DNA of 64,000 nt, taken from positions 155,252 through 219,251 of the forward strand of contig JBCCZZ010000001.1 in assembly GCA_039186605.1 (NCBI GenBank). The letters run 5' to 3'. Each line of letters starts with the position of its first letter. Position 1 is the stretch's first letter. Below are positions 2,964 to 32,783 of the stretch, in pieces. A program made the position numbers and the translations under genes. Source of the stretch: Planctomycetota bacterium (GTDB taxonomy: Bacteria > Planctomycetota > Phycisphaerae > Phycisphaerales > UBA1924). The notes under the pieces were generated by a model that worked only from the letters and a program-made list of their open reading frames with translations, ran no database searches and was not told where the DNA came from.

Positions 2964-3007
2964 CTGGCCGCCTGTCCTGCCGAACCGCGGATTGGGGTGA
3001 GCGGAGC

Positions 3008-4803: not shown

Positions 4804-5540
4804 AGACCCCTCACCTGATCCGGATGGCATCCCCCGCGGTCGCCGCGGCGCTGCTGATTGCGTTGATCGCTTCAACCGGCGGAATCGCCGGTGCTAGGAC
4901 ACCTGGCAGCGCCGTGTACTTCGAGCGGGTCAAGGACGCGATCGAGGCGGTGCCCTACATCATCGATGGTCGCTGGGTGGGCCAAGACGAGGACCCGCAA
5001 GAGGCCGCGACGACGCTGCTCAAGCCCAACAAGCTGATGCAACGGCGGTACCGCGACCAAGAGACGGGACAGGTCGTCACCCTCCTGATCGTCCACTGCA
5101 AGGACGTCCGCGACATGGTGGGTCACTACCCGCTCAACTGTTACCCGAACGCGGGTTGGGAGCTGACGGGACAGGAGCGCGAATCGAACGCGGTCGGCGC
5201 GCTGAGCGTCTCTAGCACGGCCTATGGGTTCCGGCGCGAACACGAGGGCCTTCGCCACGAGATGCGTGTGCAGAACTTCTTTATTCTCCCGGCGGGGGAT
5301 GAGACCGCTGGACGCGTCGCGGCCGACTATGACGAGCTCGATCGTGCCGGGCGCAGCGCACGCTGGACTGAACTCGGGGCGGCGCAGGTGCAGATCCTGA
5401 CCGATCCGCTCATGGACGCAGAGTTCCGAGATGAAGCGACCCGAGCGTTCATGGCGGCGCTCGAGCCCGTGATCGATCAGATCGCGAGTGGCGTTCAGCC
5501 CGGTGACGCCGAGGCCGAGCGCGAAGGGGGAGGGGCATGA
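4800..5540 (+). CDS. EpsI-like exosortase-associated protein (N-terminal TM anchor, periplasmic domain)
   Basis: ATG at 4800 overlaps the exosortase TGA (ATGA). It has a single N-terminal hydrophobic segment, lies directly downstream of the exosortase as epsI does in XrtA loci, and is about 246 aa. Confidence 0.45.
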   Translation: MKTPHLIRMASPAVAAALLIALIASTGGIAGARTPGSAVYFERVKDAIEAVPYIIDGRWVGQDEDPQEAATTLLKPNKLMQRRYRDQETGQVVTLLIVHCKDVRDMVGHYPLNCYPNAGWELTGQERESNAVGALSVSSTAYGFRREHEGLRHEMRVQNFFILPAGDETAGRVAADYDELDRAGRSARWTELGAAQVQILTDPLMDAEFRDEATRAFMAALEPVIDQIASGVQPGDAEAEREGGGA

Positions 5541-9303: not shown

Positions 9304-9371
9304 GGGAACAGCCGAAGTAGCACAGACCGACGGGGCCAACTGACCCGGCGAACGACTGACGGAGGCGTGGT

Positions 9372-12300: not shown

Positions 12301-13529
12301 GGGCGCTCGAGAGGCACCTGACCTCGCCTGATCGCACGAGCCTGGACGGGCTTCGTGGCTTCACCGAGGACCACCCAACCTGGTCGCTATCTTGGCTGAC
12401 ATTGGCGACGGAACTTGTTGCCGCGGGCGATGCAAACGAAGCAGTGCGCGTGCTCGTGAACGCCAGCGATCGTGTTCCGAACGAGGCGGTCATCCCGGCA
12501 ACCGGCTGGGAACTCGCCGCCGGGCTCGGTGAGTGGGGCCAGGCCGAACGATTCGCTCGGACATGGCGGACTCGATCGGCCCTGGATCCGCACGGCGCCA
12601 ACATGGCGCTTGCGACATCGCTCGCACGCCGTGGCGATCTCGCGGGAGCCGAGCAGATCCTGTCCGCGTCGCGCGATCGGATCATCGCAGAGGCCAACGC
12701 CAGACCGCGAGATCTGGTGACCTACGCGGAGGTGTTGGTCTCACTGGGCCGACTCGCGGAGGGTGAGGCCTTGCTCCGCCCAAGGCTTGACGAAGCGGAA
12801 GGCTGGGTGGCGTCCTACACGCAGCTCGGGCTGAGGCTTCCGGCCCTTGAAGAGCGGCGTGCTTTCCTTCGGCGGGCAATCGAGGTGGTCGCAGACAAGC
12901 CTGCGGGTATCGCGATCATTGGCCAGGCTTGGCTCGAAGACGCCGAAGCAACGGGAGAGGCCGCGAGCGCCGAAACCGCGCGGGACACGCTTCGGCTCGT
13001 CGCGAGAGAGCCAAGGTTCGCGGCCGCGGCCTGGGGCATGATCGCTCGCAGTGAGGAACTGCTCGACAACCAGGACGCGGCGATCGAGGCCTACCGGACC
13101 GCGGTCGAGCTGAGTCCTGACAACGTCCTGGCACTCAACAATCTGGCCTACATGATGCTGTCCGATGAGTCCAACGACGGTGTCGAAGCGGCTGGATATG
13201 CACGACGGGCGGTCGAGCTGCTCAGGCGAGGTGGGTCGTCGGGCGACGTTGTGGCTCAGGCCCTCGATACACTGGCGGACGCCGAACGACGACAGGGACG
13301 ATTCGAGGAGGCGGCGGCGGCCTCGGCCGAGGCGATCGAGCTCGGGCTGGGTCTTGCTATTGGAAGCCGAGCGGGCATTCTCCTTGACCTCGCTGAGGCT
13401 CAGGTCGAGCTGGGACAGCAGAGCCAAGCCGCCAGGACACTTGAACGGGCGGAAACTCTTGTGGGGGCTGAGCCAGATCCGGAGCGGGTGCGTCGGCTTA
13501 GCGAGTTGAAAGCTCGAAATTCAAGCTAA
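9372..13529 (+). CDS. Membrane-anchored TPR-repeat protein (1385 aa), PrsT-like candidate of the PEP-CTERM system
   Basis: N-terminal hydrophobic anchor LVILLVVLVVTAGAGFALV, then Ala/Leu/Arg-rich helical repeats with TPR-like periodicity throughout. It sits between the sugar transferase and the PEP-CTERM-like cargo gene. Confidence 0.65.
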   Translation: MSSRGLRRLVILLVVLVVTAGAGFALVQVRDAGRRASALEAKEAGDAAFEEERWRDALSGMAAYLSYDEFKGDAQAVYRLAEARSRVPEDRTSRHKLDALSLANQAVRLAPDSLDARLLLMRLNVDPAIRRLPEALEASAEVLRIDPDNEEAVLTRIALLGAFDRHEEAVDLAESYAEGMPGDFRAELMKLQAMRSAGATNEDVLAEATGLIDAYPDEPGYLVLATDLLLRTGDTAGARAMAIRANDAGITSPATLRAHTENLDALGLRAEADRLLEDMVEQGGSDWEFAIAYADRAWLSGRPQEALDRLRPHTSALIEADDGVLGFAAFIEHVALDDDADRPLLTALRERGSSAAQSWASLCEAADALEEDDAARARDLLEGLLLTIPGEALPAAMLARAYAKQGEALNAIDLYEQALSRSPRWVGPRLELVEVLINHGSPSLARQNAAIGYRFAPESVAAREALLEASTVAYEAEPDQGATWRAALMEDLGRLADEIPDFRGRALGRLARIAIADGDAAQAEALISDLFASEPSIPTGEMARLVAAAEGAQLTAARRLRGLTPIGELQAALAEAEAGRADAGKVRLREAISGAEGVERLRAELRLAVYLDEIDDPEARDELLKLSRAYPDNAGLQADILRTRSIWNDQDTCGEVINRLRELTGDGALNWRTFAARRVLAFDRTEQAAAEALTLLDPVLRSGNDNTDALVLAADASGLSGLREKKIEYLEAALRTAPDRSDLARILADALSEAGQSEESTAVLLQGLGDQDLAAPDRRRLIERLLARGLVAEARGELELLAGDDARDRALSAMVAAMSGDVPGARASFITLLDAQDAPATVLMDAAEFFVQIGERQLFTRAIERAMPDASEAERLRVGTGIAVSVNAWASAEASARRLVDMGETEPTELGVLIAAALSRGDLEGAEASASLGAVTDIHSRAVSLAREAAGSGRLDAIRSIGRLLADPSERAQALFGALERHLTSPDRTSLDGLRGFTEDHPTWSLSWLTLATELVAAGDANEAVRVLVNASDRVPNEAVIPATGWELAAGLGEWGQAERFARTWRTRSALDPHGANMALATSLARRGDLAGAEQILSASRDRIIAEANARPRDLVTYAEVLVSLGRLAEGEALLRPRLDEAEGWVASYTQLGLRLPALEERRAFLRRAIEVVADKPAGIAIIGQAWLEDAEATGEAASAETARDTLRLVAREPRFAAAAWGMIARSEELLDNQDAAIEAYRTAVELSPDNVLALNNLAYMMLSDESNDGVEAAGYARRAVELLRRGGSSGDVVAQALDTLADAERRQGRFEEAAAASAEAIELGLGLAIGSRAGILLDLAEAQVELGQQSQAARTLERAETLVGAEPDPERVRRLSELKARNSS

Positions 13530-14489: not shown

Positions 14490-15548
14490 TCAGCCGTACT
14501 GCTTCTCGTAGTACTCGCGGTACGCGCCCGATCGGACACGCTCCCACCATTGGCGGTTGTTACTGTACCAGCGGATGGTGTCTTCCAATGCGGCGGGCCA
14601 GGCCGAGCGAGTTGGCTCCCAACCAAGTTCATTCTTGATCTTGGTCGCATCGATCGCGTACCGGCGGTCGTGACCCGGGCGGTCGGGGACGTACTCGATC
14701 ATCTCCTCGCCGTGGCCCATGCCCTCAAGGATCGAACGAGTGAGCTCCAGGTTGCTGCGCTCATTGTTCCCGCCAATGTTGTATGTCTCGCCGCTCCGGC
14801 CCTTCTCAAGCGCCGCGAGGACGGCTTCGCAGTGATCTATCACGTGGAGCCAGTCCCGGACATTCTGGCCATCGCCGTACAGCGGGACCTTCTTTCCGTC
14901 GAGCAGATTGGTGACAAACAGCGGGATGACTTTCTCGGGGAACTGCCAAGGCCCGAAGTTGTTCGAGCAGTTGGTCGTCACCAGATCCATACCAAACGTG
15001 TTGTGGTAGGCATTGACGAGAAGATCGCTCGCGGCCTTGCTGGCCGAATACGGACTGCCCGGGTCGTAGGGCGTGGTCTCGGTGAAGAGCTGCGTCTTGT
15101 CATCGAGCGGCAGTGAGCCGTACACCTCGTCGGTGGAGACGTGGAGGAACCTGCCAGCGCCGTCCGCTAGGCCTTTGCCATCGCACGCGCGGCGTGCGGC
15201 GTCAAGCATGGTCTGGGTGCCGAGGACGTTGGTCTTGATGAACGGGCCCGAGTCCATGATCGACCGATCGACGTGGCTCTCGGCGGCCATGTGGACTACG
15301 GCGTCGCACTCGCTACAGAGATCACTCACGAGCCGAGCATCGCAGATGTCACCCTTGACGAATCGGTAGCGATCGTCGCCATCGACATCGGCGAGGTTCT
15401 CGAGGTTCGCGGCATATGTCAGCACGTCCAGGTTTGTCACGCGCACGCCGGGGCGGTTCTCGAGGACGAACCTGATGAAGTTCGACCCGATGAATCCGGC
15501 GCCGCCGGTGACCAGGATGTGCTCGAACGATCTTGGCTTGGTCATCAT
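14490..15548 (-). CDS. rfbB: dTDP-glucose 4,6-dehydratase
   Basis: ILVTGGAGFIGSNF and YSASKAASD motifs, SDR-extended RmlB family. ATG start preceded by GAGGA. Confidence 0.9.
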   Translation of the reverse strand: MMTKPRSFEHILVTGGAGFIGSNFIRFVLENRPGVRVTNLDVLTYAANLENLADVDGDDRYRFVKGDICDARLVSDLCSECDAVVHMAAESHVDRSIMDSGPFIKTNVLGTQTMLDAARRACDGKGLADGAGRFLHVSTDEVYGSLPLDDKTQLFTETTPYDPGSPYSASKAASDLLVNAYHNTFGMDLVTTNCSNNFGPWQFPEKVIPLFVTNLLDGKKVPLYGDGQNVRDWLHVIDHCEAVLAALEKGRSGETYNIGGNNERSNLELTRSILEGMGHGEEMIEYVPDRPGHDRRYAIDATKIKNELGWEPTRSAWPAALEDTIRWYSNNRQWWERVRSGAYREYYEKQYG

Positions 15549-15549
15549 C

Positions 15550-16386
15550 TCAGTCCTCAAGTCGGCTGATCACGGCTCGGAGGTTTTCGCGCCAATCGGG
15601 CATGGGGCCGATCGCGGCCTCGGTCTCGGAGAGGTCCATCACGCTATAGGGCGGACGCTTGGCGGGCCTGGGGTACTCATCGCTCGTGCAGGGATGGACA
15701 GTGCATCGTCCGTCGGCTGCGGTGCGGTTGATCTCCTGGGCAAAACCGTGCCAGGTGCACTCGCCTCCGTCGGTGATGTGATGGAATCCATCGACGCCCG
15801 CCCGGAGCATGCCGAGGGACGCCGAGGCCAGGTGCTCGGCGCTGGTGGGCCGACCACGCTGGTCGTCAACCACGCGGAGCTCATCCTTTGAGCGGGTGAG
15901 GTTCGCCATTGTGAGCACAAAGTTCTTGCCCCAGGGGGCGTAGAGCCAGCTCGTGCGGGCGGTGAGGTGTCGGCAGCCCGACTCGGCGATCGCGGCTTCG
16001 CCGACGGCCTTGCTGCGGCCGTAGGCGTTAAGTGGCTCGATGGGAGCTTCTGTGGGGTACGGTTCGGTGGCGTTGCCGTTGAAGACGTAATCGGTGCTGT
16101 AGTGGATGAGTGTTGCGCCTTCGTTTGCGCAGGCTCTGGCGAGCCGCCCCACCGCTTCACCGTTGATCTTCGTTGCTTCGGATTCGTGTGTCTCTGCGCC
16201 GTCTACATCGGTCCATGCGGCGCAGTTGATGACGGTGCCATAGCCGGCAAGATCCCAGTCTGCGTCCCCAAGATCGAGTTCGGTACGCGGGGGCGCGTCG
16301 TGCTCGAGCGCCTCGCGCTCCAGCAGTTCCTGCCACGCCCGGCCCAGCATGCCCGAGCCACCGATGAGCAAGGCCCGGCCCAGCAT
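15550..16386 (-). CDS. rfbD: dTDP-4-dehydrorhamnose reductase
   Basis: MLGRALLIGGSGMLG...YSTDYVF...YGRSKAVGE, RmlD family. The start overlaps the rfbA stop. Confidence 0.85.
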   Translation of the reverse strand: MLGRALLIGGSGMLGRAWQELLEREALEHDAPPRTELDLGDADWDLAGYGTVINCAAWTDVDGAETHESEATKINGEAVGRLARACANEGATLIHYSTDYVFNGNATEPYPTEAPIEPLNAYGRSKAVGEAAIAESGCRHLTARTSWLYAPWGKNFVLTMANLTRSKDELRVVDDQRGRPTSAEHLASASLGMLRAGVDGFHHITDGGECTWHGFAQEINRTAADGRCTVHPCTSDEYPRPAKRPPYSVMDLSETEAAIGPMPDWRENLRAVISRLED

Positions 16387-17159
16387 CAGGACGAGGCCAC
16401 CTCGACGGAGCCGGCGGCCATCTGCTCGGGCGTCTTGTTCGCACCGTCCCTTGCGACGTAGCTTGCTGCTCGGTGGAGACTCTCGAAGGTGCCGGCGTCG
16501 GTCCACCAGCCGTCGAGTTCGGTCCAGCTCAGGTCGCCGCGTTCGAGGTACATGTTGTTTACATCGGTGATCTCGAGCTCACCCCGGGCACTCGGCTCAA
16601 GGTTGTTGCACATGTCGAAGACCGAGCCGTCGTAGAAATAGATCCCCGTAACCGCTTTGTTGCTGGGCGGGTCCTTGGGCTTCTCCACGATGCCGGTGAT
16701 GTTGCCGTTGTCGTCGAGCGACGCGACGCCGAAGCGCTGGGGGTCGTGGACCTCCTTGAGCAGAAGCTTTGCGCCTGTGGGCTGGCTGAAGAAGTCGCCC
16801 GCAGCTCGGCGGATGTTTCCCTCGATGATGTTGTCACCGAGAATGACACAGATCTTGCTGCCCTCGGCGAAGTCCTCGGCCAGCCGGAGGGCATCGGCGA
16901 TCCCGCCCTCGCCCTCCTGGTAGGCGTAGGCGAGGCGTTTGAGGCCCGTGTCCTGACCGTTCTTGAGCAGCTTGAGGAAATCGCCTGCGTGCTCACCGCC
17001 GGTGACGATCAGAACCTCGTCGATCCCGGCATTGCGCAGGCACTCGATCGGGTAGTAGATCATCGGGCGGTCGTAGACCGGCAGGAGGTGCTTGTTGGTA
17101 ACGAGGGTCAGGGGCCGAAGCCTGGTCCCGAGCCCGCCGGCGAGGATTACACCCTTCAT
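16386..17159 (-). CDS. rfbA: Glucose-1-phosphate thymidylyltransferase
   Basis: MKGVILAGGLGTRLRPLT...HLLPVYDRPMIYYPIE, RmlA family. Confidence 0.9.
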   Translation of the reverse strand: MKGVILAGGLGTRLRPLTLVTNKHLLPVYDRPMIYYPIECLRNAGIDEVLIVTGGEHAGDFLKLLKNGQDTGLKRLAYAYQEGEGGIADALRLAEDFAEGSKICVILGDNIIEGNIRRAAGDFFSQPTGAKLLLKEVHDPQRFGVASLDDNGNITGIVEKPKDPPSNKAVTGIYFYDGSVFDMCNNLEPSARGELEITDVNNMYLERGDLSWTELDGWWTDAGTFESLHRAASYVARDGANKTPEQMAAGSVEVASS

Positions 17160-20412: not shown

Positions 20413-23001
20413 TCATGCACCCGAATCGAGGCGGATCGAGGCATTGATCACGGCGAGGTGGCTGTAGGCCTGGGGGTGGTTCCCAAGGGCCACCGACTGG
20501 GCCGGGTCGTACTGCTCGGGGAGCAGCCCGGTGGGCCCGGCCAGAGCGCAGAGGTCGGTCAGCAGGGCTCTAGCTGCAGCAACCCGGCCGATCAGTACCA
20601 GCGACTCGATCAGCCAGCCCGTGCAGATCAGGAACCCGCCCTCGCGGCCGGCGAGCCCGTCGTCGTAGCGGTAGCGCCACACGGCGGGGCCCTCGCGGAG
20701 TTGCTCATCCACCAGTTCCACGGTCTTAACGAACCGCTCATCCATGGGATCGAGCATGCCGGTCAGCCCGACGAGCAGGGCCGAGGCATCGGGGTCGGGA
20801 TAGCCGTACGCGGTCGTGAACGCGCCGGTGTCGGGATCGACGCCGTTGCGGAGCAGATCGGACTTGATCTCCTCGGCGAGCGCGGCCCATTCGGGCTTGT
20901 CGCGGCCTGTGAAGCGTCGGGCGATCCGAGCACCGCGGTCTGCAGCGAGCCAGCACATGGCGCGGGAGTGGACGTGGTGGCGTCTCGCGAGGCGTATCTC
21001 CCAGATGCCGTGGTCCGGCTCATGCCAGCGTTTTTCGACGGCGGAGAGCAGAGACTCGGTCAGCCGCATGTGCTCGGCGCTGATGGGGGCGCCGCGTTCG
21101 CCGAGCTCGTCGATGAGCTCGATGATCGGGCCGATGACATCGAGTTGGATTTGTGCACTCGCGGCGTTGCCAACACGGACCGGACGGCTGCCCGCGTAGC
21201 CGGCCAGTTCGGTGATCTCTGCCTCGGGAGGTAGATCGCCGCCCGTGACGCTGTAAATCGGCCGGATGCGGTCTGGGCTCGGCAGTTCATCGACGATGTT
21301 GAGGCACCAATCGAGGAAACGCATCGCCTCCTGTGTTGAGCCGAGGCGCACGAGCGCCAGGGCACTCATCGATGCGTCGCGGGGCCAGCAGAAGCGGTAG
21401 TCCCAGTTTCGAACGCCCCCCAGGGTCTCGGGGAGGCTCGTCGTAGCGGCGGCGGAGAACGCGCCGGTCGGACCGTACGCGAGAGCGCGGAGGGTGAGGG
21501 CGCTACGCCGGACGAGGTCGGTGTGCAGGCCCGGCAACTCGAGCTTGTCAGCCCACTTCGTCCAGCCGTGGGCGGTCTCGCTCCGCCTTGCCGCCTCGTC
21601 ACGGGAATCGGGACGGAGGTTGCCGGTGCCGCACCGGAGTTCGAGCATGAGCGGCTCACCGGCCTTCAGGGTGATCTCGGCTGTGGCCGTCACGTGCTGG
21701 CCCTCGCGGTGGAGTTCCCAGTTGACACCAGGCGCACGGAGGACGATGGGGTCCACGGTGTCAGAGACGCTGAGCCCCTCATCGGTTACATCGAATGCGG
21801 TCGCGGTTCGGCCGAAGTCCAGACGCGGAGCAAACTCGATCCGGACGGGGCCCTTGCCTTCAAGCACACGGATCAGGTCGGTGCGGCCGGCACGCTGTGT
21901 GGCTCGCCCGCCCGAGGTGTCGAGATAGTCGGTCACCGAGAGATCAGGCCAGGACGTTCGCAGGACCAGCGAGTTGCTGTCGTAGGCCTGTTTGGGTTCC
22001 CCGCCCGAGAGGGGATGGACTGTGAAGTGCCCGGCGGCGTCGCCGCCCAGCAGGTCGGCGAAGAGGGCGGGCGAGTCGATCCGGGGTGCGCACATCCACG
22101 TCACCCGAGCCTTAGGCGTCACAAGCGCAACGGTCCGACCATCGCTCAGGAGTGCGTGTTCCTCGATGGGAACTGCACCCTCGCCTCGGAGCCAGGCCGC
22201 GCGGTGGTCACTGAGCTTGGCCAGGATGCGGCTGACGTCCTGGGTGTCATCCACACGGAATGTCGCGAGGGTCTCGCCAACGCCGACTTTGACCGAGACG
22301 TCTGGCCCACTCATCGCGGCAAACGCGTCCTCGTCGGTGCGGTCGTCACCGAGGAAGACCGCGGCGCTCGCGCCGAAGCGCTGACGGAGTGTCGCGAGGG
22401 CCCGGCCCTTGTCGGTGGGCACGACGGCAAGCTCGATGACCTTCTTCCCACGGCGGACGTGCACACCCGGGAGGCATGCGGGCCCCGCGTTGACACGGCT
22501 TACCGCGGCGTCGGCCTCGGCTTCGGCTGCGTTGCGGTAGTGGAACGCGGTGCTCGCGGGCTTGGTCTCGATCGCGAGGCCTTGGGCCGAGCTGGCGATA
22601 TCGCCCAGCTGCTCTGTCACCCGCTCGAGCAGCCGGCGCTGGGCAGGGGTGAGCGAGTCGGCGAAGCCCACGTCGAACTCGCTGCCGTGGCTGCCGACCA
22701 GATGGACACCTGCCGGGGAGCCGGTGAGGTCGGCGAGGTCGGCCAGCGAGCGGCCCGAGATGATTGCGGCCTCGGTCTTGTGGATCTCGGCGAGTGTGCG
22801 CACGGCGATGACTGCCTCGCGGTGGGGCCTGGCGTCCGCGGGGTTCTCGACGATGGGCGCGAGGGTTCCGTCGTAGTCGGTTGCGACAAGCAGTACTGGC
22901 GAACGAGCGACACGGGCGATGGCCTCGTCGAGGGTCTCGGCGGGGCGGTGCTCTGCGGGCCGTTGTTCTGAGGCGTTGTGTCGGTCGGTCATGGTTGGCA
23001 C
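20413..23001 (-). CDS. otsB: Bifunctional trehalose-6-phosphate phosphatase (HAD) / glycoside hydrolase family 15
   Basis: N-terminus has ATDYDGTLAP and FLGDDRTDEDAF HAD motifs. The C-terminal ~600 aa form a GH15 (glucoamylase/trehalase-like) alpha-alpha toroid region. Confidence 0.8.
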   Translation of the reverse strand: MPTMTDRHNASEQRPAEHRPAETLDEAIARVARSPVLLVATDYDGTLAPIVENPADARPHREAVIAVRTLAEIHKTEAAIISGRSLADLADLTGSPAGVHLVGSHGSEFDVGFADSLTPAQRRLLERVTEQLGDIASSAQGLAIETKPASTAFHYRNAAEAEADAAVSRVNAGPACLPGVHVRRGKKVIELAVVPTDKGRALATLRQRFGASAAVFLGDDRTDEDAFAAMSGPDVSVKVGVGETLATFRVDDTQDVSRILAKLSDHRAAWLRGEGAVPIEEHALLSDGRTVALVTPKARVTWMCAPRIDSPALFADLLGGDAAGHFTVHPLSGGEPKQAYDSNSLVLRTSWPDLSVTDYLDTSGGRATQRAGRTDLIRVLEGKGPVRIEFAPRLDFGRTATAFDVTDEGLSVSDTVDPIVLRAPGVNWELHREGQHVTATAEITLKAGEPLMLELRCGTGNLRPDSRDEAARRSETAHGWTKWADKLELPGLHTDLVRRSALTLRALAYGPTGAFSAAATTSLPETLGGVRNWDYRFCWPRDASMSALALVRLGSTQEAMRFLDWCLNIVDELPSPDRIRPIYSVTGGDLPPEAEITELAGYAGSRPVRVGNAASAQIQLDVIGPIIELIDELGERGAPISAEHMRLTESLLSAVEKRWHEPDHGIWEIRLARRHHVHSRAMCWLAADRGARIARRFTGRDKPEWAALAEEIKSDLLRNGVDPDTGAFTTAYGYPDPDASALLVGLTGMLDPMDERFVKTVELVDEQLREGPAVWRYRYDDGLAGREGGFLICTGWLIESLVLIGRVAAARALLTDLCALAGPTGLLPEQYDPAQSVALGNHPQAYSHLAVINASIRLDSGA

Positions 23002-24703: not shown

Positions 24704-25015
24704 ATGAGCGACAACCCCGAGCAGCGTCAGGTCCAGCTCCGCATCGACGAGAGCAAGATGCAGACGACCTATGCCAACACGATCCGAACCTCGACAACTC
24801 AGGACGAGGTCATCATGGACTACGGCGTGAACATCCCGGTGCAGGGCCAGGACGGGCAGCCGGCGATGAACTTCGGGATCACCAGCCGCGTGATCATGAA
24901 CTGGTCGGGCGCGAAGCGTCTGGCGATTAATCTGGGTCAAGTCATCCGCGCCTATGAGGAGCGGAACGGCGAGATCGAACTCCAGCGTCCGCAGCAGCCA
25001 GGGGCCGAGGGCTGA
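24704..25015 (+). CDS. DUF3467-like small protein (103 aa)
   Basis: MSDNPEQRQVQLRIDESKMQTTYANTIR...FGITSRVIMNWSGAKRLAINLGQVIRAYEE matches the conserved pattern of the ~100-aa DUF3467 family. It is the first gene of the operon described in findings. Confidence 0.55.
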   Translation: MSDNPEQRQVQLRIDESKMQTTYANTIRTSTTQDEVIMDYGVNIPVQGQDGQPAMNFGITSRVIMNWSGAKRLAINLGQVIRAYEERNGEIELQRPQQPGAEG

Positions 25016-25056: not shown

Positions 25057-26943
25057 ATGAGTACAACCGGGACCGAACGCGAACAAGCTGCGCTCGGGCG
25101 CACGAGCCCGAACGCGGAGGGTGCCGCGCGGCTCCGTGCGTTCCTGGGTGAGCTGCTGGAGTTCCAGTGCTCGCTGGTTGGCGCAACGGGCGGTGTGGTT
25201 GTTCTACGCGAGACCAAGGTGCGCCAAGGGGGGGTGATCGCCGAGCGGGCCTGGCCCGGGGGCGGACCGCTTGATCCATCGGTCCGCGCCCGGCTTGAGC
25301 GTGCGGGTGCGGATTCGCTTCGCACGCCTGCGAGATCGAGCGTCGCGGGTCAGTTGCGGGATTTGGGTGGCAGCGGGATCTACGGCGAGGGCGAGGCGAG
25401 GCCGATGGTCGTCGTTGGGCTCTTCGCCGCCGGCATGCGTGAGGGCTCGGCGGTGCTGCTGTTACCGCCCGGGACAGACGAGCGTGACGCCCTAGACAAG
25501 CTTGAGCTGACTGCGGACCGGTTCGAGAGCTATCTGTGGTCTCAGCGTGCGATCGCCGAAGCCGAGCAGAAGACGGTGCTTCGCGAAACGCTTGAACTGC
25601 TGGACACGATGCAGCAAGGGCGAGACGCACGCGCAATGGCGTCGCTCCTGGCTCACGAGATCGCGCGGCGGTTCGGCTGCGTGCGCGTGAGCGTCGGGCT
25701 TGTCGGCAGGGATCGGATCAGGCTCTCAGCGGTGAGCGGCTCGGACGACCCTGACCCAAAGGGTGAGGCAGCCGAAGCGCTGGAAGCCGCGATGGAGGAG
25801 GTTGCTCAACAAGACGCGGAGGTGATCTACCCGGAGCCTCCAGAGGCCGAGCATGACCCGATGCTGCGGCGCGTGACTCGTGCGGCCGAAGCGCTGAGCA
25901 AACGGTTTGGGCCTACGGCGGTCATGGGACTTCCTCTGCGTGTGGAGGGCGACCTGGTCGGGGTCGCGATCCTGGAGCGGGATCCAGAAGAGCCTTTCCC
26001 GTCGGGCGCGGCTTCGCTGACAAGGCTTGTCGCGGAGTATGCGGGACCGGCGCTCTGGACGAGGCGTCTGGCGGACCGCGGGCTGATCCGGGTGGTGTAC
26101 GACTGGTGCATGGATATCGCGTCGATCCTGGTCGGGCCCAGGTACACGGCGACGAAGCTGGTGTGTGCGTTGCTGCTGGGGATTGCGGTTGCATCCGCGC
26201 TCGTGCCGATCCCCGGGCGTGTGACGGCGGAAACCCGTGTCAGAGCGGGGATGTCGCGCACGGTGGTTCCAGCGATCACGGGGTACCTGAACGGGGTCTT
26301 CGTTGAGCCCGGCGATCGGGTTGAGGTGGGCGATGAGCTGGCCCGGATCGATACCTCCGACATGGAGTTGGACCGCGCCGAAATCCTCGGTGAGTTGGCT
26401 CGGCTTCGAAGCGAGCGGGACGGCGCGGCTGCTCGGCGCAGGAACGCCGAAGTCAGGCAGCTCGAAGCGCAGATTGAGCAGCAGGACGCCAGGCTTATGC
26501 TGCTCGACCTGCGCATTAGCCGTGCCACACTGACCGCGCCGATCGACGGGGTGGTCGGCCGGGGCCGGCTGGACGAGTTGGTCGGCGCACAGGTCGATCC
26601 GAGCCGGCCGCTCTTCGAACTGGTGGATGAGGAACGGGTGCTGGTGCTTCAGGTGCCCGAGTCCGTCGTAACAAAGGTCGAGGTGGGCCAGACGGGCCGG
26701 TTTGTCTCGAAGGCAATCCCGGGCGAGAGCGTCGACGTGCGTGTCGTCTCGATTAGCCCTGTTGCCGAGCCGATCGAGGGTGGGAACGTGTACGGCGTCG
26801 AGGCCGAGATTGTTGGTGAGGTGCCGGCCTGGCTCCGCCCAGGCATGTCGGGCAAGACCAAGCTCGACAAGGGGCAGACCACGGTGATGCGTTTGCTGGC
26901 GGACCCGCTGATCGATCGGGCGAGGCTGTACCTTTGGTGGTAA
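25057..26943 (+). CDS. HlyD-family membrane-fusion/adaptor protein with cytoplasmic tandem GAF-like N-terminal domains
   Basis: Two GAF-like modules (~370 aa), one TM helix (LVCALLLGIAVASALVPI), then a biotinyl-lipoyl-like hairpin (GYLNGVFVEPGDRVEVGDELARID), coiled coil and beta-barrel, as in HlyD/MFP proteins. Confidence 0.7.
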   Translation: MSTTGTEREQAALGRTSPNAEGAARLRAFLGELLEFQCSLVGATGGVVVLRETKVRQGGVIAERAWPGGGPLDPSVRARLERAGADSLRTPARSSVAGQLRDLGGSGIYGEGEARPMVVVGLFAAGMREGSAVLLLPPGTDERDALDKLELTADRFESYLWSQRAIAEAEQKTVLRETLELLDTMQQGRDARAMASLLAHEIARRFGCVRVSVGLVGRDRIRLSAVSGSDDPDPKGEAAEALEAAMEEVAQQDAEVIYPEPPEAEHDPMLRRVTRAAEALSKRFGPTAVMGLPLRVEGDLVGVAILERDPEEPFPSGAASLTRLVAEYAGPALWTRRLADRGLIRVVYDWCMDIASILVGPRYTATKLVCALLLGIAVASALVPIPGRVTAETRVRAGMSRTVVPAITGYLNGVFVEPGDRVEVGDELARIDTSDMELDRAEILGELARLRSERDGAAARRRNAEVRQLEAQIEQQDARLMLLDLRISRATLTAPIDGVVGRGRLDELVGAQVDPSRPLFELVDEERVLVLQVPESVVTKVEVGQTGRFVSKAIPGESVDVRVVSISPVAEPIEGGNVYGVEAEIVGEVPAWLRPGMSGKTKLDKGQTTVMRLLADPLIDRARLYLWW

Positions 26944-26953
26944 GGGGCGCGCG

Positions 26954-29185
26954 GTGCGGCTTTTCGAGGTAGACACCGGCGGGACCTATTCCGACGAGTG
27001 GTACAGGGTCAGCCAGCTCCAGCCCAGGCTGAACCCGATCGCACACGTCGTGCGTCAGAGCAGCGGGGACACGGTGTGGTACATCATCGAGGACCCGGCA
27101 GGGAGCCGCTACTTCCGGGCGGGTGAGGGGGCGTACTTCTTCGCCGCGCTCCTCGATGGCAGGCGGACGGTGGATGACGCGTGGGAGGCGTGCTGCGCGC
27201 AACTTGGGGACGCGGCGCCGACACAGCGTTCGTGCCTCGACATCCTGATGAAGCTCCAGTCTTTCGGGCTGCTGCTTGGCGATGATGTAGCAGCGGCGGA
27301 TCTCGTGGGCGAGCGGATCAGGCGGGGGCGGAAGAGCCGCCGCGAGAAGCGAACAGGGCGCTGGTTTTTCCTCAGCGTGCCGCTGGTCAACCCGGAACGG
27401 CCGCTGGCAGCGACGAACTGGCTCTGGAAAGCGGCATGGGGACCCCTCGGGCTGATCCTCTTTCTCGCGTCCGTTGTGGCGGGCGGGTACAGCGTTTGGA
27501 CCAACGCCGATCAGCTCGCGGATCCGATCAATGAGTTGATGACACCCACGCGGCTCATGCTGGTGGGGCTGATCTTCATTGTTCTTCGTGCGGTTCATGA
27601 GCTCGGGCATGCGACGGCTTGTAAGGCGTACGGCGGCCGTTGCACAGAGATTGGGCTTTTCCTGGTGGCGCTCATTCTCCCGCTTCCCTACTGCGATGCA
27701 TCGAGTTCGTGGCGCTTCCCGGAGCGTTGGAAGCGGATCATGGTCGCGTTGGGCGGCGTGATGGTTGAGCTGTTCATTGCCGGGATTGCGGCGGTGATTT
27801 GGGCGAACACATCCGCAACGGATGCGCCCGCTCTAAAGAACGTGTGCTACCACGTGATGCTGGTGTCGGGTGTCGCGACGTTCCTGTTCAACCTCAATCC
27901 GCTGCTTCGATACGACGGGTACTACATCCTGAGCGATCTCATCGCTGCGCCAAATCTGGCGCAGCGCAGCAAGGAGATCTGGCGCTACCTGACGGAGCGG
28001 ATCGCGTTCGGGGTCAAGAGGAGCAGGCCTCCGACACTGCGATCCAGGAGCGAGGCAATCTGGCTTTTCTTCTACGCACTCGCATCCACGCCCTACCGAT
28101 TGTTCATCGCGGTGTCGATCATCCTTCTGGTCTCGTCGAAGTACCTGACAGTTGGTGTTGTGATCGCGGTCGCGACCGCGACGATCATGTTGATCTGGCC
28201 ATCACTCAAGGGCGCGTGGTACCTGCTGAGTTCGCCCACACTTATCGGGCGGCGTGTTCGAGCGTTCGCTGTGGTTGCGGTCGTGCTCGGTGCGTTGATC
28301 GGTGGGCTCGGGTTCGTCCCCGCACCGGCGGCGGAGATCTCGCCGGCAACGATCGAGGCCCGGTGGACCGATCCCATCCGGGCACCGCTCGACGGGTTCG
28401 TTGAGAGCTTCCTTGTTTCTCCCGGAGACGAGGTCGAGGCGGGCCAGCCGCTGATTCTGCTGCGCAACGATCCGCTTGATATCCAGATCACCGAGCTCGA
28501 GTCGATCAGAAGGCTGACTGAGGCGCAGCTCGCGCAGGCCGAGACGGAATCTCCGGCGCTCGCGGTGCTCGCGAGGCAGAAACTCGATCTGATCAACGAG
28601 CGCCTGGCGGACGCGGTCGGGAGACGGGACTCGCTGACCGTTCGTGCGACACGTGCCGGACGGTACGTCGCGCCCGGCGCGATCGCGGGTGGGCTCGACC
28701 GGCTGACGGGTGTGTTTGTGTCGCGCGGGGAACCTCTGGGCAGTGTGGCGAGCCGAGACTCGTTGGTCGTGCGGGCGTATGTCTCTGATCGAGAGCACGC
28801 GTACGTATTCAGGAATGACGACCTGGGTGCGGTACCCGCGTCGGTTCGGCTGTGGGGCCGGGCGGGGCTGGAACTGCCCGCGGTGGTGACCGCGACTGAG
28901 CCTGTTGCGTCGCGCGGCGCAGACTTGGCGGTGACCACGCTCGCTGGAGGAGAGGTAGAGATCACCCAGGACGCCGAGGGGAACCAGATCGCCATGGTGC
29001 CCCAGTTCCGTGTGGATCTCCAGCCATCTGATGACGGGCGGTGGGCCGAAGCGGGCGAGATCCGCGCTGGTTTGCGTGCCCGCGTGCGTTTCGCGGCTCC
29101 TGATGAACCGCTCGGCGCGCAGTGGTTCAGGCGTGCGAGCCGCTATTTCGAGGAGCGGTTCGCGGGCGGCGGGGGTGCCCTGTGA
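26954..29185 (+). CDS. Site-2 protease (peptidase M50) fused to N-terminal PqqD/RRE-like domain and C-terminal HlyD-like periplasmic domain
   Basis: N-terminal ~110 aa (P..P....R..G..W...DP...RYFR..EGAYFFAALLDGRRTVDDAWE...DILMKLQSFGLLL) is PqqD-like. HELGH lies in a TM helix, and FNLNPLLRYDGYYILSD is the second S2P motif. The C-terminus has VESFLVSPGDEVEAGQPLILL plus coiled coil, i.e. HlyD-like. Confidence 0.75.
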   Translation: MRLFEVDTGGTYSDEWYRVSQLQPRLNPIAHVVRQSSGDTVWYIIEDPAGSRYFRAGEGAYFFAALLDGRRTVDDAWEACCAQLGDAAPTQRSCLDILMKLQSFGLLLGDDVAAADLVGERIRRGRKSRREKRTGRWFFLSVPLVNPERPLAATNWLWKAAWGPLGLILFLASVVAGGYSVWTNADQLADPINELMTPTRLMLVGLIFIVLRAVHELGHATACKAYGGRCTEIGLFLVALILPLPYCDASSSWRFPERWKRIMVALGGVMVELFIAGIAAVIWANTSATDAPALKNVCYHVMLVSGVATFLFNLNPLLRYDGYYILSDLIAAPNLAQRSKEIWRYLTERIAFGVKRSRPPTLRSRSEAIWLFFYALASTPYRLFIAVSIILLVSSKYLTVGVVIAVATATIMLIWPSLKGAWYLLSSPTLIGRRVRAFAVVAVVLGALIGGLGFVPAPAAEISPATIEARWTDPIRAPLDGFVESFLVSPGDEVEAGQPLILLRNDPLDIQITELESIRRLTEAQLAQAETESPALAVLARQKLDLINERLADAVGRRDSLTVRATRAGRYVAPGAIAGGLDRLTGVFVSRGEPLGSVASRDSLVVRAYVSDREHAYVFRNDDLGAVPASVRLWGRAGLELPAVVTATEPVASRGADLAVTTLAGGEVEITQDAEGNQIAMVPQFRVDLQPSDDGRWAEAGEIRAGLRARVRFAAPDEPLGAQWFRRASRYFEERFAGGGGAL

Positions 29186-31221
29186 GCGGTGTGGTCGGCG
29201 GGGGCACGATCGGCCGGTCGGGGCGGCTCTGGGCAGACCTCGCGAAGCCACAGGAACGAACGCTCGCGCTTCGAGGCGCGGACGTGTTTGGCTCGACAGT
29301 CGTTGGAATCGGTGCCCGGTTCAGGCGTGCAAGAACCGAGCGAGGTCGGGCAAAGTCCATACTCACCGAGGCCCGAACGCTCAGCGATCACTCGTCCGCG
29401 GCGTTCGCTGAACGGGTGAGTGAGGCGCAGTCGTTGGTGCTCTTGGATCGCTCGAGCAGAGCCGCGGTTGACGCTGCGTACGCCTGTGCGGTCGAGGCGG
29501 TGCGCCGCACGCTCGGGTTCGAACTGCACACGGTGCAGGTGATGGCCGCGCTCGCGATGGCGAAAGGCTGCTGCTGCGAGCTGGCGACCGGCGAGGGAAA
29601 GACGGCGGCCGCGATCTTGCCTGCGGCGCTAGACGGCATGGTCGGTCGCGGCGTTCACGTGATCACGGTGAATGACTACCTCGCGGGGCGCGATGCGGAA
29701 ATCACTGGTCCTGCGTATCGGTTGCTGGGCTTGCGTGTCGGCTTCGTGACGGAGACTTCGTCGACGGAGGCGCGTCGAGAGGCGTATTCGGCAGATATCA
29801 CCTACGCGGCGGAGAAGCAGCTGATCTTCGACTACCTGAGGGATCGCCTCCTGACCCCCGTGAACCCCCGGATGGCCTCGGCGTTGCTTGACGAGGTGGC
29901 GGGATACGACCGACGTGTACGCGGCGCGGAGACCGAGCGGGGCGACGCCAAATGGGCACAAACGGTAACCCAGCGCGGGCTGCACGCGGCGGTGATCGAC
30001 GAGGCGGACAGCGTGCTGATCGACCAGGCCGGGACGCCGGCGATCATCGGGCGTGACGCGCCGGAGGAACTCGGTGAGGCGGCAGCCGAGCGGTACCGGA
30101 CGTCCGACGCCATCGCGGCCTCGTTGACCCGGGGGGTTCATTACAAGCTGGATGAAGGGCAACGCTTTGTTGCGCTCACCGACGCGGGACGACACGTGCT
30201 TGACGAGCGTTCTGTGGAACTCCCCCCGTTCTGGTCGGGACCGAGGCGTCGAGAAGAACTTGTGAAGCTCTCACTCATGGCTCGGGAGACGTTCGAGCGG
30301 GACGACGACTATGTCGTCCGCGACGGTGCGGTCGAGCTTGTTGACCGACAGACGGGGCGGGTGCTGACGGGTCGGCAGTGGCAGCAGGGGTTGCACCAGG
30401 CGGTCGAGGCGAAAGAGGGCGTCACGATCACCGCGGGTCGGCAGACCATGAGCCGGATCGGTTATGCCGCGTTCTTTGCTCGCTACCGGCGGCTATGCGG
30501 CATGAGCGGTACTTGCTGGGAAACACGGCACGAGCTGTGGCGCATGTATCGGTTGCCGGTTGCGCGTGTGCCAACCCATAAACGCGTGCGGCGGAGGCAC
30601 GCGGGTGATCGCGTGTTCACGAGCGAGACTCAGAAGTTCGAGGCGGTCGCGAACCGAACTGCGAAGCTCAGCGGTGTGGGACGGCCCGTGCTCATTGGGA
30701 CGCGGAGTGTTGCAGCAAGCGAGCGGCTTGGCAAGCTGCTTGACGAACGAGGCGTCGGATGCAAGATCCTGAACGCCTACCGCGAGGCTGAAGAAGCGGA
30801 GATCATCGCTGCCGCCGGCGAAGAACACGCGGTCACGGTCGCGACGAACATGGCTGGCCGCGGCACGGATATCAAACTGACGAAGAAAGCCAAGAAGCTG
30901 GGCGGACTGGTGGTTGTTGCCACAGAGCGGCACAACGAGCGACGCGTTGATCGCCAGCTCTTCGGCCGTGCGGGACGGCAGGGCGATCCTGGGCGTGCAG
31001 AGATGTTCGTCTCGCTCGACGATGAACTGGTGCGCGGCGCGATGCCCACGACCGGCCGTCTGGCGCTCAGGCTAACGCCTCCGCCTTTCCGCTCGCTGCT
31101 CGGGCGCCTGCTGTTGCCGGTGAGCCAGCGGATCGCGAGCGGCCGCGCAGCGGTGCATCGGCTCGAAAGCTGGAAGCATGACTCGTCGAAGGATCTTGCG
31201 CTGCGAGGTCACACGCGTTAG
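29182..31221 (+). CDS. SecA-like motor ATPase (NBD1 + PPXD-like + NBD2 only; no helical scaffold/wing/C-tail)
   Basis: GEGKTAAAILPA (Walker A), VHVITVNDYLAGRDAE, VIDEADSVLIDQAGTPAIIG, ATNMAGRGTDIKL and ERHNERRVDRQLFGRAGRQGDPG all match SecA DEAD-motor signatures. The protein ends ~70 aa after NBD2. GTG start overlaps the upstream stop (GTGA). Confidence 0.75.
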   Translation: MSGVVGGGTIGRSGRLWADLAKPQERTLALRGADVFGSTVVGIGARFRRARTERGRAKSILTEARTLSDHSSAAFAERVSEAQSLVLLDRSSRAAVDAAYACAVEAVRRTLGFELHTVQVMAALAMAKGCCCELATGEGKTAAAILPAALDGMVGRGVHVITVNDYLAGRDAEITGPAYRLLGLRVGFVTETSSTEARREAYSADITYAAEKQLIFDYLRDRLLTPVNPRMASALLDEVAGYDRRVRGAETERGDAKWAQTVTQRGLHAAVIDEADSVLIDQAGTPAIIGRDAPEELGEAAAERYRTSDAIAASLTRGVHYKLDEGQRFVALTDAGRHVLDERSVELPPFWSGPRRREELVKLSLMARETFERDDDYVVRDGAVELVDRQTGRVLTGRQWQQGLHQAVEAKEGVTITAGRQTMSRIGYAAFFARYRRLCGMSGTCWETRHELWRMYRLPVARVPTHKRVRRRHAGDRVFTSETQKFEAVANRTAKLSGVGRPVLIGTRSVAASERLGKLLDERGVGCKILNAYREAEEAEIIAAAGEEHAVTVATNMAGRGTDIKLTKKAKKLGGLVVVATERHNERRVDRQLFGRAGRQGDPGRAEMFVSLDDELVRGAMPTTGRLALRLTPPPFRSLLGRLLLPVSQRIASGRAAVHRLESWKHDSSKDLALRGHTR

Positions 31222-32783
31222 GGCGTTCGTTGGCTCGGCTGTGGATCGCGGTCGATCATTGAGTCGAGCATGGTGCCGATGAGGGCGGTCGTGGCGCTAT
31301 CGCTCTCATCCGCACCACCACCGTTGACCATTACACGCGGTGCGATGTTGATCCCGCGTTCGCCGATCACCTGCAGCACTTCGATGAGCGCGGCGTTTCC
31401 GGGGCCGATCTCGCGGGCGATGGCCTGGAATGCCGCAGCCTGGGCCTCGGCGCGGACGCGGATCGCCTCGGCTTCGGCCTCTGCGGCGATGATGCGCTTG
31501 CGCTTGTCTTCCTCAGCGATCTGCACCTCGTAGCGCGCTGTGGCGAGGCGCCGCTCTTCCTCGGCCTCCTGCTCGGTTCTGGTCAGCTGCTTGCGTTGTT
31601 CTGCGGCTCGTTGCTGCTCCTGGAACGTGATCTGCTCCTGGAGCGCGATCTCCCGATCGGTCTGGGTCTGCAGCAGCTCTCCCAGCGTTTCGCGATCTCC
31701 GACATCACCGATCGCGACGCCGGTGACGGTCACACCAAGCGGCGCAAGCCTCATCTGGAGCATGCTCAGCGATTGGGCTTCCTGGCTTGAACGCTGCTGC
31801 ACATAGTCAAGAGCCTTGACACCCTCGGCGTTGTTCCGAAAGACGGAGCGGACTGCGGAGATCAGGCGGTCTTGGAGCAGTTCTCCATCATCGCGGAAGG
31901 TCGCGACGACCAAGGGGGCATCGATCGGTTTGATCTCGTACTCGACACGCACATCAACGGGGAATGTGAACCCATCGCTTGAGCGGACTGTGATCTCGCT
32001 CTCGGCTTCCGTACGTTGCGCCTTGGTGAACTCGAGTACGCGTTTGGCGGTGCTGATCACGGTGACCTCGAGCGCTTTGCTGTTCAGGTAGTACTCCTTA
32101 GGCTCGAGTGGTTGGCGACGGATGCCGCGCTCGTCGGGGCCGACAAGCCCGTCGTCCGAGATGGCTGGAGGCGTGGCGCCAACGTTGGACTTCACGACAC
32201 CAACGGTGGCCCGCTCGATGTTGGTCAGACGGACGAGTTCGACATCGAAGAGCTTGGGGTTGATCCTGTAGGACCCGGGCCTGAGCACGCTGGTCTGTGG
32301 GCCCTTGTACCCCCCGCCATCACCCAAGAAGTAACCGGCATCCTGCGCCATGCGCTTCGTGTCACTCTCGGCCCACTCCGGCGCGTAGATTGAATCGGCG
32401 GGGAGTGGAAGCCCGTCACGTGCGGTTACGAGCCCGACCGAGCCCGTCTCAACGCGAACGATTGGGTGGAACTCGACATCGAAGATGAAGGGCCACAGGA
32501 ACGGGTGCCAGCCGGGTGGGAGGATGTCCGCCTGCGGTCCTTTCTCGCCTTCTGTCGCGATGATCTTCCCGGGTGGGAGCCCCTTGCCGCCGACGTTCTT
32601 GATCACAACGCCGATGCGGTCCTCGGGAACGAAGCGGAAGCTCCCGAGCACGAAGAACACGCCGAGCACGATGATCGCAGCCGTGGCGATCGATGCCCTC
32701 AGCGCTGAGGACTTCACCTTTGGGATGAGTGCGAGGATGCCGCCAGCAATGACGAGCCCGAACACGAGCAGGATCGCGGTCAT
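31218..32783 (-). CDS. SPFH/Band 7 (flotillin-like) membrane protein
   Basis: N-terminal TM hairpin, SPFH core, and a long Ala/Glu-rich coiled-coil C-terminus (EAEAEAIRVRAEAQAAAFQAIA). Confidence 0.8.
   Translation of the reverse strand: MTAILLVFGLVIAGGILALIPKVKSSALRASIATAAIIVLGVFFVLGSFRFVPEDRIGVVIKNVGGKGLPPGKIIATEGEKGPQADILPPGWHPFLWPFIFDVEFHPIVRVETGSVGLVTARDGLPLPADSIYAPEWAESDTKRMAQDAGYFLGDGGGYKGPQTSVLRPGSYRINPKLFDVELVRLTNIERATVGVVKSNVGATPPAISDDGLVGPDERGIRRQPLEPKEYYLNSKALEVTVISTAKRVLEFTKAQRTEAESEITVRSSDGFTFPVDVRVEYEIKPIDAPLVVATFRDDGELLQDRLISAVRSVFRNNAEGVKALDYVQQRSSQEAQSLSMLQMRLAPLGVTVTGVAIGDVGDRETLGELLQTQTDREIALQEQITFQEQQRAAEQRKQLTRTEQEAEEERRLATARYEVQIAEEDKRKRIIAAEAEAEAIRVRAEAQAAAFQAIAREIGPGNAALIEVLQVIGERGINIAPRVMVNGGGADESDSATTALIGTMLDSMIDRDPQPSQRTP

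Follow-up and report, generated by a model that had tools for sequence, protein, structure and literature searches.

A wingless SecA-derived motor encoded with HlyD and M50 protease partners in a Phycisphaerae operon

We describe a short SecA paralogue, and the operon that it closes, in a 64,000-nt stretch of DNA from a Planctomycetota bacterium of the class Phycisphaerae (GenBank assembly GCA_039186605.1, contig JBCCZZ010000001.1, positions 155,252 to 219,251 of the forward strand). This whole stretch is called the window below, and coordinates are positions within it. The protein is a SecA-derived ATPase in which nucleotide-binding domain 1 (NBD1), the polypeptide clamp, or preprotein cross-linking domain (PPXD), and NBD2 are retained; the two-helix finger, the wing, the C-terminal tail and the greater part of the scaffold are gone. 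It belongs to a family described by comparative genomics in 2015, and the interpretation in the original prediction, that a SecA-derived ATPase here serves a membrane partner other than that of canonical SecA, is sound but not new. We consider it reasonably likely that the motor drives a type I-like, envelope-spanning export machine with its HlyD and M50 partners, and not SecYEG.

The motor gene starts with GTG (29182-29184) and stops with TAG (31219-31221). NCBI and Logan (run SRR22824305) gene calls use the same start, and their product is exactly our P0001 of 679 aa; NCBI labels it 'hypothetical protein AAGB51_00805', from a Planctomycetota metagenome-assembled genome (MAG). Hydropathy predicts a cytosolic protein with zero transmembrane (TM) segments. 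The features of the gene and its ends are as follows, with conservation taken from alignment A1 of 25 family members.

29182..31221, plus strand: open reading frame (ORF) of the wingless SecA motor, 679 aa, with an N-terminal extension, NBD1, PPXD, NBD2 and one C-terminal helix
29182..29185, plus strand: GTGA, read from the sequence, in which the motor start overlaps the stop TGA (29183-29185) of the upstream M50-HlyD gene
29182..29466, plus strand: N-terminal region particular to the family, residues 1-95, in which helices come after the conserved motif RLWPxLxxPxxRxxPxxGxD
29590..29604, plus strand: Walker A, GEGKT, residues 137-141, invariant in 25/25
29854..29958, plus strand: family-specific NBD1 insertion of ~35 aa, residues 225-259, flanked by the conserved segments DYLRD and QRGLH
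29998..30009, plus strand: DEAD motif, residues 273-276, with D273, E274 and D276 invariant and A275 in at least 90%
30085..30408, plus strand: PPXD, residues 302-409 (Pfam SecA_PP_bind, 3.2e-25, above cut-off)
30586..31041, plus strand: NBD2, residues 469-620 (Pfam P-loop_SecA, 469-~620, 2.4e-51)
30964-30993, plus strand: motif VI with the arginine finger, GRAGRQGDPG, residues 595-604, a GRxGRQGDPG element invariant but for position 597
31087..31215, plus strand: single C-terminal helix in the AlphaFold2 (AF2) model, residues 636-678, with the family motif AQxxASxRxxxxRxExAKxDAWxxxAxHxxxR
31218..31221, both strands: TTAG, read from the sequence, overlapping stops of the motor (TAG, plus strand, 31219-31221) and of an SPFH/Band-7 gene (TAA, minus strand, 31220-31218)

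The original prediction had noted motifs of NBD1, the PPXD region and NBD2. Walker A, DEAD and motif VI are conserved in this alignment, and each of the three regions has a Pfam match above cut-off; SecA_DEAD covers residues 55-453 (4.6e-77). The domain check suggested there gave SecA_DEAD and SecA_PP_bind, and no Pfam match to SecA_SW. The protein stops 75 residues past motif VI, close to the ~70 that had been estimated. The absence of scaffold, wing and tail had also been claimed, and this holds for SecA_SW, the two-helix finger and the tail, but the scaffold is not wholly gone: the C-terminal helix is a 43-residue remnant, the start of the SecA scaffold helix, and Mycobacterium tuberculosis SecA2 (4uaq) aligns with the query up to residue 667. 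From its motifs the protein is predicted to be an active ATPase.

All NCBIfam models of SecA and SecA2 score below their cut-offs. NCBIfam SecA and SecA2 models align to the motor only up to model position ~473-552 of ~760-790, and the long-form model NF009536 up to 751 of 1118. The cut-offs for canonical SecA are not reached (TIGR00963, 520.8 vs 800; NF009538, 516.1 vs 814). The AF2 model (mean predicted local distance difference test score, pLDDT, 82.9; predicted TM-score, pTM, 0.81) consists of NBD1, PPXD and NBD2 followed by one helix. All strong Foldseek matches to it are SecA, the best being SecY-bound SecA (5eul, 6itc) with a TM-score of 0.76, and the engineered SecA-N68 and DEAD-motor fragments (5k9t, 3bxz) are also recovered. 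Within the family-specific N-terminal region the model has helices at residues 33-88 (pLDDT 64-97). The NBD1 insertion appears as a gap separating two aligned stretches in the comparison with Bacillus subtilis SecA; P226 and W258 in it are invariant, and AF2 confidence is low at 242-255.

Short length is the sole point in favour of an artefact, in which a canonical secA was shortened by a frameshift, an assembly error or recent pseudogenization, and we hold that account to be vanishingly improbable. More than 120 homologues are all 644-722 aa long, with 50-72% identity and the same three Pfam domains, and the best 150 representatives at 50% identity from a library of 1.8 billion proteins are almost all 613-725 aa. 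The C-terminal motif is conserved and ends at one alignment column in the 25 sequences of A1. Separate assemblies, among them complete plasmids from bacteria in culture, yield homologues of this length, and the motor sequence itself is identical in the independent Logan assembly. Given the homologue lengths and the co-terminal conserved C-terminus, the truncation is a family trait and not a sequencing error. A frameshift near the 3′ end had been named as something to check; when the last 330 aa of ten canonical SecA proteins served as tblastn queries, no coding for scaffold or wing was found past the end of NBD2 in any frame of the window. The convergent SPFH/Band-7 gene (31218..32783, minus strand; Pfam Band_7) adjoins the motor stop, and the overlap of the two stop codons leaves no room for further SecA domains. 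A frameshift or pseudogene was rejected on the co-terminal C-terminus, the negative tblastn and the convergent gene at the stop. The TTAG overlap also means that no intergenic terminator lies between the motor and SPFH genes.

Kamneva, Poudel and Ward (PLoS One 2015, PMC4452313) described 'secondary SecA_DEAD domain proteins' as a clade separate from canonical SecA, with canonical SecA present in every genome that they studied. The neighbouring genes encoded GAF-HlyD, Peptidase_M50-like or M50-HlyD, and HlyD/biotin-lipoyl proteins, and at times OEP; the authors proposed a secretion resembling type I secretion systems (T1SS), with the SecA motor as ATPase and the M50 protein as membrane component, and stressed that the function was unknown. 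The window protein shares with that family SecA_DEAD, PPXD and NBD2, a SecA_SW that is absent or a fragment, placement in a distinct clade, GAF-HlyD and M50-HlyD neighbours, and the phyla in which it occurs. It differs in that many members have small HlyD/biotin-lipoyl and OEP genes and the window locus has none. Among window ORFs of at least 250 aa there is no canonical secA, nor did tblastn of SecA C-terminal regions find one in the window. The 2015 paper is silent on DUF3467, the PqqD-like domain, the conservation of the protease site and giant-protein substrates, all treated below. A full-text literature search found no experimental follow-up to it, and neither the link between cargo and machine nor the DUF3467 component was found in the literature searched.

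Comparison with SecA and SecA2 in a tree had been proposed as a further check. We built a neighbour-joining distance tree of 82 SecA cores over 489 columns, a limited sample that includes 25 short proteins, and all 25 fall in one clade apart from canonical SecA and SecA2 (100/100 bootstrap). The clade splits into a subclade of syntenic loci (100/100) and a second subclade (L015, L024, L055 and L061; related loci are numbered with the prefix L). The members of the second subclade are of Pirellulales type plus one from Phycisphaerae. In L061 the short secA lies ~2.3 kb upstream of rpoA, and in L055 the stop-to-stop ORF reaches ~480 aa upstream of the SecA core.

The clear homology to SecA and SecA2 could be taken to mean a SecA2-type accessory ATPase that exports selected proteins through the housekeeping SecYEG channel, as happens in mycobacteria. 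SecA2 of mycobacteria and Gram-positives (4uaq, 6sxh) is likewise a second paralogue for special substrates, with ~33% identity to the window motor in structure-based alignments, and it keeps the scaffold and two-helix finger and acts through SecYEG or SecY2. In solved complexes (3din, 5eul) the two-helix finger and scaffold contact SecY and insert into it, and the SecA2 proteins of mycobacteria and Gram-positives keep both; the window motor has lost the finger and most of the scaffold. Two points speak for such a role: in conformation the AF2 model comes nearest to SecY-bound SecA, and the 2015 tree puts the clade beside actinobacterial SecA2 (PMC4452313). Against it, the motor falls below the cut-off of every SecA2 model (TIGR03714, 448.7/930; TIGR04221, 434.4/725; TIGR04397, 478.2/1085; NF012136, 368/1100), it is in strict synteny with membrane proteins of its own, and no secY2 or asp genes were found nearby among the scanned window ORFs. 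We regard a SecA2-type role as very unlikely.

A different membrane partner, as originally predicted, is supported by the separate clade and by synteny with M50-HlyD and GAF-HlyD genes across three phyla. The motor gene is the last of four plus-strand operon genes, the other three being as follows.

24704..25015, plus strand: small DUF3467 protein of 103 aa, encoded at the head of the operon (Pfam DUF3467, 5.3e-16)
25057..26943, plus strand: GAF-HlyD protein, 628 aa (Pfam GAF_3/GAF and HlyD_D23/HlyD_3; NCBIfam RND_mfp and type_I_hlyD below cut-off)
25624-26055, plus strand: its GAF domain, residues ~190-333, predicted cytoplasmic (Pfam, hydropathy)
26158-26214, plus strand: its single TM segment, residues 368-386 (hydropathy)
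26215-26877, plus strand: its HlyD (membrane-fusion) domain, residues 387-607, predicted periplasmic (Pfam, hydropathy)
26954..29185, plus strand: fusion of PqqD-like, M50 (site-2-protease-like) and HlyD domains, 743 aa (Pfam Peptidase_M50, 1.3e-07; HlyD_3)
27086-27274, plus strand: its PqqD-like domain, residues 45-107, predicted cytoplasmic (Pfam PqqD, 7.9e-4, below cut-off)
27422-28318, plus strand: its M50 region of ~7 TM segments, residues 157-455 (hydropathy)
27596-27610, plus strand: HExxH, residues 215-219, M50 metal-site motif
27896-27916, plus strand: NPLxxxD, residues 315-321, M50 metal-site motif
28343-28813, plus strand: its HlyD domain, residues 464-620, predicted periplasmic (Pfam HlyD_3, hydropathy)

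The gaps between the first three genes are 41 and 10 nt. The gene upstream of the motor had been called a protease-HlyD fusion, and it does carry M50 with the HExxH at 215-219 as well as HlyD. The overlap of its stop with the motor's GTG was also read correctly, and these 4 nt suggest that the motor is co-translated with the fusion. The same 4-nt overlap is found in L001 and Pontibrevibacter; the two genes overlap by 8-13 nt in L095, Alisedimentitalea and Pseudohalocynthiibacter, and are separated by ~26-37 nt in L096, L097 and Mesorhizobium and by 73 nt in Methylosinus. Relatives overall have either an overlap or a gap of up to ~110 nt, and in Pseudosulfitobacter a SapC gene sits between the M50-HlyD and motor genes. 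Both upstream membrane proteins carry HlyD_D23/HlyD_3 domains that score below the cut-off of the type_I_hlyD subfamily.

More than 20 related loci, from Phycisphaerae, Planctomycetaceae, Tepidisphaerales, Opitutaceae and Gamma-, Beta- and Alphaproteobacteria, preserve the order GAF/HlyD, M50/HlyD, SecA motor, so that the family is common to Planctomycetota, Verrucomicrobiota and Proteobacteria. The GAF-HlyD gene is syntenic in all related loci. Many loci also have, upstream or downstream, a small HlyD/biotin-lipoyl adaptor of ~300 aa, and a TolC/OEP gene adjoins the module in L045 (Opitutaceae) and in Methylosinus. No ABC transporter is annotated in or immediately beside the orthologous operons of the plasmid loci, and none of its ATPases or permeases was found in the window operon or the scanned window ORFs. 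Database names vary: the motor is annotated as 'prepilin peptidase', 'DEAD/DEAH box helicase', 'hypothetical protein' or 'preprotein translocase subunit SecA', and the M50-HlyD protein as 'PqqD family protein', 'PqqD family peptide modification chaperone', 'site-2 protease family protein', 'peptidase M50' or 'hypothetical protein'.

The protease site of the fusion is fully conserved. Residues H215, E216 and H219 and N315, P316 and D321 are invariant in orthologues from 16 loci of several phyla, and because HExxH and NPLxxxD are kept in all 16 the protease is probably active.

The small DUF3467 gene heads the operon in the window and in all seven other Phycisphaerae loci examined, those with enough upstream sequence. 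It also precedes the operon in one Burkholderiales locus and in four of the six alphaproteobacterial plasmid loci (L083-L086, L091 and L092); the loci with DUF3467 ahead include L001, L003, L010, L021, L095-L097, L083, L084, L086 and L092. In the other two plasmid loci (L085; L091 with L094) a SapC-family protein is encoded in its place. The protein has no TM segment and has 798 homologues, with 65-90% identity among the best 120; those with names are from Phycisphaerae or Planctomycetota. Its mean column identity is 68% (alignment A2), compared with ~50-58% identity of motors to the window SecA (71% for the closest relative). Being more conserved than the motor argues for a part of the machine and not a cargo. 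The AF2 model, of low confidence (pLDDT 58.7), has three strands and one helix, and no sequence match was found in the PDB. DUF3467 is possibly an adaptor or chaperone. A SecB-like chaperone was considered and found unsupported (probability 0.1 by hhalign against Escherichia coli SecB).

A small gene at the head of an operon with a putative peptidase could also belong to a pathway for ribosomally synthesized and post-translationally modified peptides (RiPPs). There a PqqD-like domain would recognize a leader, the HExxH enzyme would remove it as in daptides, and SecA with HlyD would export a small peptide, either the DUF3467 product or that of a short ORF. The NCBIfam daptide_HExxH model (NF041824) does match residues 26-413 of the M50 fusion at 2.7e-46, the PqqD domain is matched weakly, and PGAP names orthologues 'PqqD family peptide modification chaperone'. 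However, the daptide score is 158.4 against a cut-off of 300, and the YydH/LiaK model NF058609 is also far below its own (34.4 vs 225). The operon has neither modification enzymes nor an ABC exporter, and its 41- and 10-nt gaps leave no room for a precursor ORF, a candidate that we therefore rejected. DUF3467 itself is more conserved than the machine, the opposite of typical secreted peptides, and resembles a folded beta3-alpha domain in its low-confidence model. We judge the peptide pathway quite unlikely.

The export machine that we favour would work as follows. The two inner-membrane proteins, GAF-HlyD and M50-HlyD, would form the membrane part, and the SecA motor would dock on their cytoplasmic face as the cytoplasmic motor and substrate-engaging subunit. 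The N-terminal 95 residues, the 225-259 insertion and the terminal helix are plausible docking surfaces for these partners. The ~7-TM domain of M50-HlyD may serve as inner-membrane passage, and its zinc site may cleave the substrate or remove a leader. A duct through the periplasm, made of the HlyD domains, would lead to a TolC-like channel; the channel and a small HlyD adaptor, encoded elsewhere in the genome, would complete the duct. GAF-HlyD is a candidate sensor or regulator, and DUF3467 may assist the machine, for example as adaptor or chaperone. The E. coli SecA-N68 or DEAD motor (5k9t, 3bxz) has near-identical NBD1-PPXD-NBD2 boundaries and likewise lacks the C-terminal regulatory and SecY-engaging region. 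It is a laboratory construct, and the window protein adds to it the 95-aa N-terminal region, the 35-aa NBD1 insertion and the 43-aa terminal helix. SecA-N68 is a deregulated, constitutively active ATPase that is unable to translocate, so that regulation here may come from partners, GAF or DUF3467 for example.

The same parts could be arranged without any export: the SecA motor would be an unfoldase that feeds a membrane or cytoplasmic substrate to M50 as the effector, in the manner of FtsH and its AAA domain, and GAF would sense a small molecule. Site-2 proteases classically act in signalling, and the invariant zinc-protease site, the sensory GAF domain of the partner and the absence of a cargo or TolC gene from the window all fit. 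Yet each locus has two or three HlyD-domain proteins, and some have TolC, which are hallmarks of a trans-envelope duct; no conserved anti-sigma/sigma pair stands beside the operon; and in proteobacteria giant proteins of extracellular type are encoded next to it. We think regulated proteolysis unlikely, and favour export because of the multiple membrane-fusion domains, the TolC of some loci and these adjacent giant proteins, to which we now turn.

By tblastn, each of the four window proteins has a full-length orthologue on plasmids of cultured Mesorhizobium ciceri, Methylosinus sp. C49, Pontibrevibacter and Pseudosulfitobacter, and annotated operons of the same order are present on plasmids of Alisedimentitalea and Pseudohalocynthiibacter. 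Directly upstream of the operon, and in the same orientation, each of these six alphaproteobacterial plasmid loci has a giant gene. Five of the giant genes are annotated (24-39 kb, ~8,100-12,900 aa); the sixth, in Pseudohalocynthiibacter, is an ORF without annotation that the start of the locus cuts off and that spans at least 1,756 aa. The LEPR-XLL domain (NCBIfam NF012209) scores above cut-off in four of four giant N-termini tested, which have in common the motif LEPRxLLSAD after a basic stretch. The last 1,200 aa of the giant proteins contain RTX, bacterial Ig, cadherin-like, PKD, LamG and cohesin domains. LEPR-XLL is absent from the first 120 aa of the annotated Alisedimentitalea giant, whose annotated start may be wrong or which may truly lack the domain. 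Giant repeat proteins are also adjacent in three proteobacterial MAG loci (L007, L012 and L017), so that the cargo link comprises nine proteobacterial loci. The giant RTX/Ig/cadherin proteins are likely the cargo of these orthologous operons; by analogy, the cargo of the Phycisphaerae operon is probably a very large repetitive surface protein.

T1SS for giant RTX adhesins (LapA/LapBCE, SiiE/SiiCDF) and peptidase-containing ABC exporters were also compared. The T1SS share HlyD-type proteins with the window-type operons, TolC with some of the loci and, with the proteobacterial relatives, a giant RTX/Ig-repeat gene beside the transport genes; a protease is coupled to transport as in C39-ABC transporters. 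They differ in that the window-type ATPase is soluble and SecA-derived and not ABC, that an M50 metalloprotease joined to an adaptor domain makes up the membrane part, and that the candidate signal, LEPR-XLL, is N-terminal and not C-terminal. The window itself has HlyD-family proteins, as a T1SS does; no ABC transporter was found among its scanned ORFs, and it lacks TolC and a nearby substrate gene.

West-Roberts et al. (bioRxiv 10.1101/2023.11.21.568195) found wingless SecA modules within giant proteins of Omnitrophota and Actinobacteria and proposed them for self-export. These modules also have SecA_DEAD and the preprotein-binding domain without scaffold or wing, in genomes that hold a normal SecA as well. 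They are, however, highly divergent and fused in cis to a multi-TM giant, whereas the window motor is free-standing, at 679 aa, with HlyD/M50 partners, and the giants near window-type motors are separate genes found only in proteobacterial relatives. Two long proteins in our searches contain a SecA-motor module, P0345 (4930 aa; module at residues 3012-3539) and P0336 (1240 aa); P0345 may be of the cis-fused type.

A fuller version of the export machine can be sketched, although we hold it only tentatively. It would be a distinct pathway for giant surface proteins, comprising a DUF3467 or SapC accessory protein, GAF-HlyD, the PqqD-like/M50/HlyD protein, the wingless motor in place of an ABC transporter, the small adaptor and TolC. 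Proteins of 8,000-13,000 aa with LEPR-XLL and RTX would be threaded N-terminus first, the PqqD-like domain binding the LEPR-XLL leader and M50 cleaving it, and the window operon would represent this pathway in Phycisphaerae, the gene for its cargo lying at another site.

Several points weigh against the export machine. The case for it is one of comparative genomics. The two-helix finger, thought to push the polypeptide in canonical SecA, is missing, which leaves the application of force unexplained. We know of no channel function for an M50 protease, and the GAF domain and protease would fit signalling as well. The PqqD-like assignment is weak at E = 7.9e-4, below the Pfam cut-off. The window has no giant, RTX or LEPR-XLL gene that could be cargo, no small HlyD adaptor and no TolC-family gene, and the Planctomycetota and Verrucomicrobiota loci have no adjacent giant gene. 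In the second short-SecA subclade, no HlyD or M50 neighbours were found in the scanned flanks of L055 and L061.

The surroundings of the operon in the window contain trehalose genes divergent from it, an exosortase-type exopolysaccharide locus at 1617-13529 and, further downstream, genes in a region of lower GC content.

1617-2963: UDP-glucose dehydrogenase, exopolysaccharide locus
3802-4803: exosortase EpsH, exopolysaccharide locus
4485-5540: DUF3485, exopolysaccharide locus
5537-7852: Wzz/AAA_31 chain-length/kinase-like protein, exopolysaccharide locus
7849-9303: sugar transferase, exopolysaccharide locus
9372-13529: TPR protein, 1385 aa, exopolysaccharide locus
14490-17159, minus strand: dTDP-rhamnose genes, after the exopolysaccharide locus
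20413-23001, minus strand: trehalose-phosphatase/TREH_N/glycoside hydrolase 15 fusion, 862 aa
23007-24797, minus strand: OtsA, trehalose gene divergent from the operon, with homology from ~residue 135
48349-51174, minus strand: Ser/Thr kinase-TPR protein
53970-56180, minus strand: D5-like primase/helicase (D5_N, DUF5906, Pox_D5)

GC content falls from ~0.65 to ~0.60 past 42 kb (window 42000-64000), and the 42-64 kb region, above all around the D5-like gene, could be what remains of a prophage or a mobile element that has integrated.

SecA is normally single-copy, essential and bound to SecYEG. The window protein itself is one more member of the family described in 2015 and of modest value as such. 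To that description we add the DUF3467 component, the invariant M50 site and the candidate cargo, and tractable hosts can now be named, among them Methylobacterium extorquens AM1 (META1p2399-2402), Mesorhizobium ciceri R30 (plasmid, LRP29_RS31435-31460) and Methylosinus sp. C49 (GYH34_RS19180-19210). The family has more than 150 clusters at 50% identity in at least three phyla, some of them on plasmids of cultivable rhizobia, roseobacters and methanotrophs. If the module does export the adjacent giants, the LEPR-XLL domain and DUF3467 would gain a function, and some of the largest bacterial proteins would reach the surface without an ABC transporter. A lineage of motor and clamp that travels with its own membrane-fusion and protease partners suggests that the polypeptide-threading engine of SecA has been re-used outside the Sec channel.

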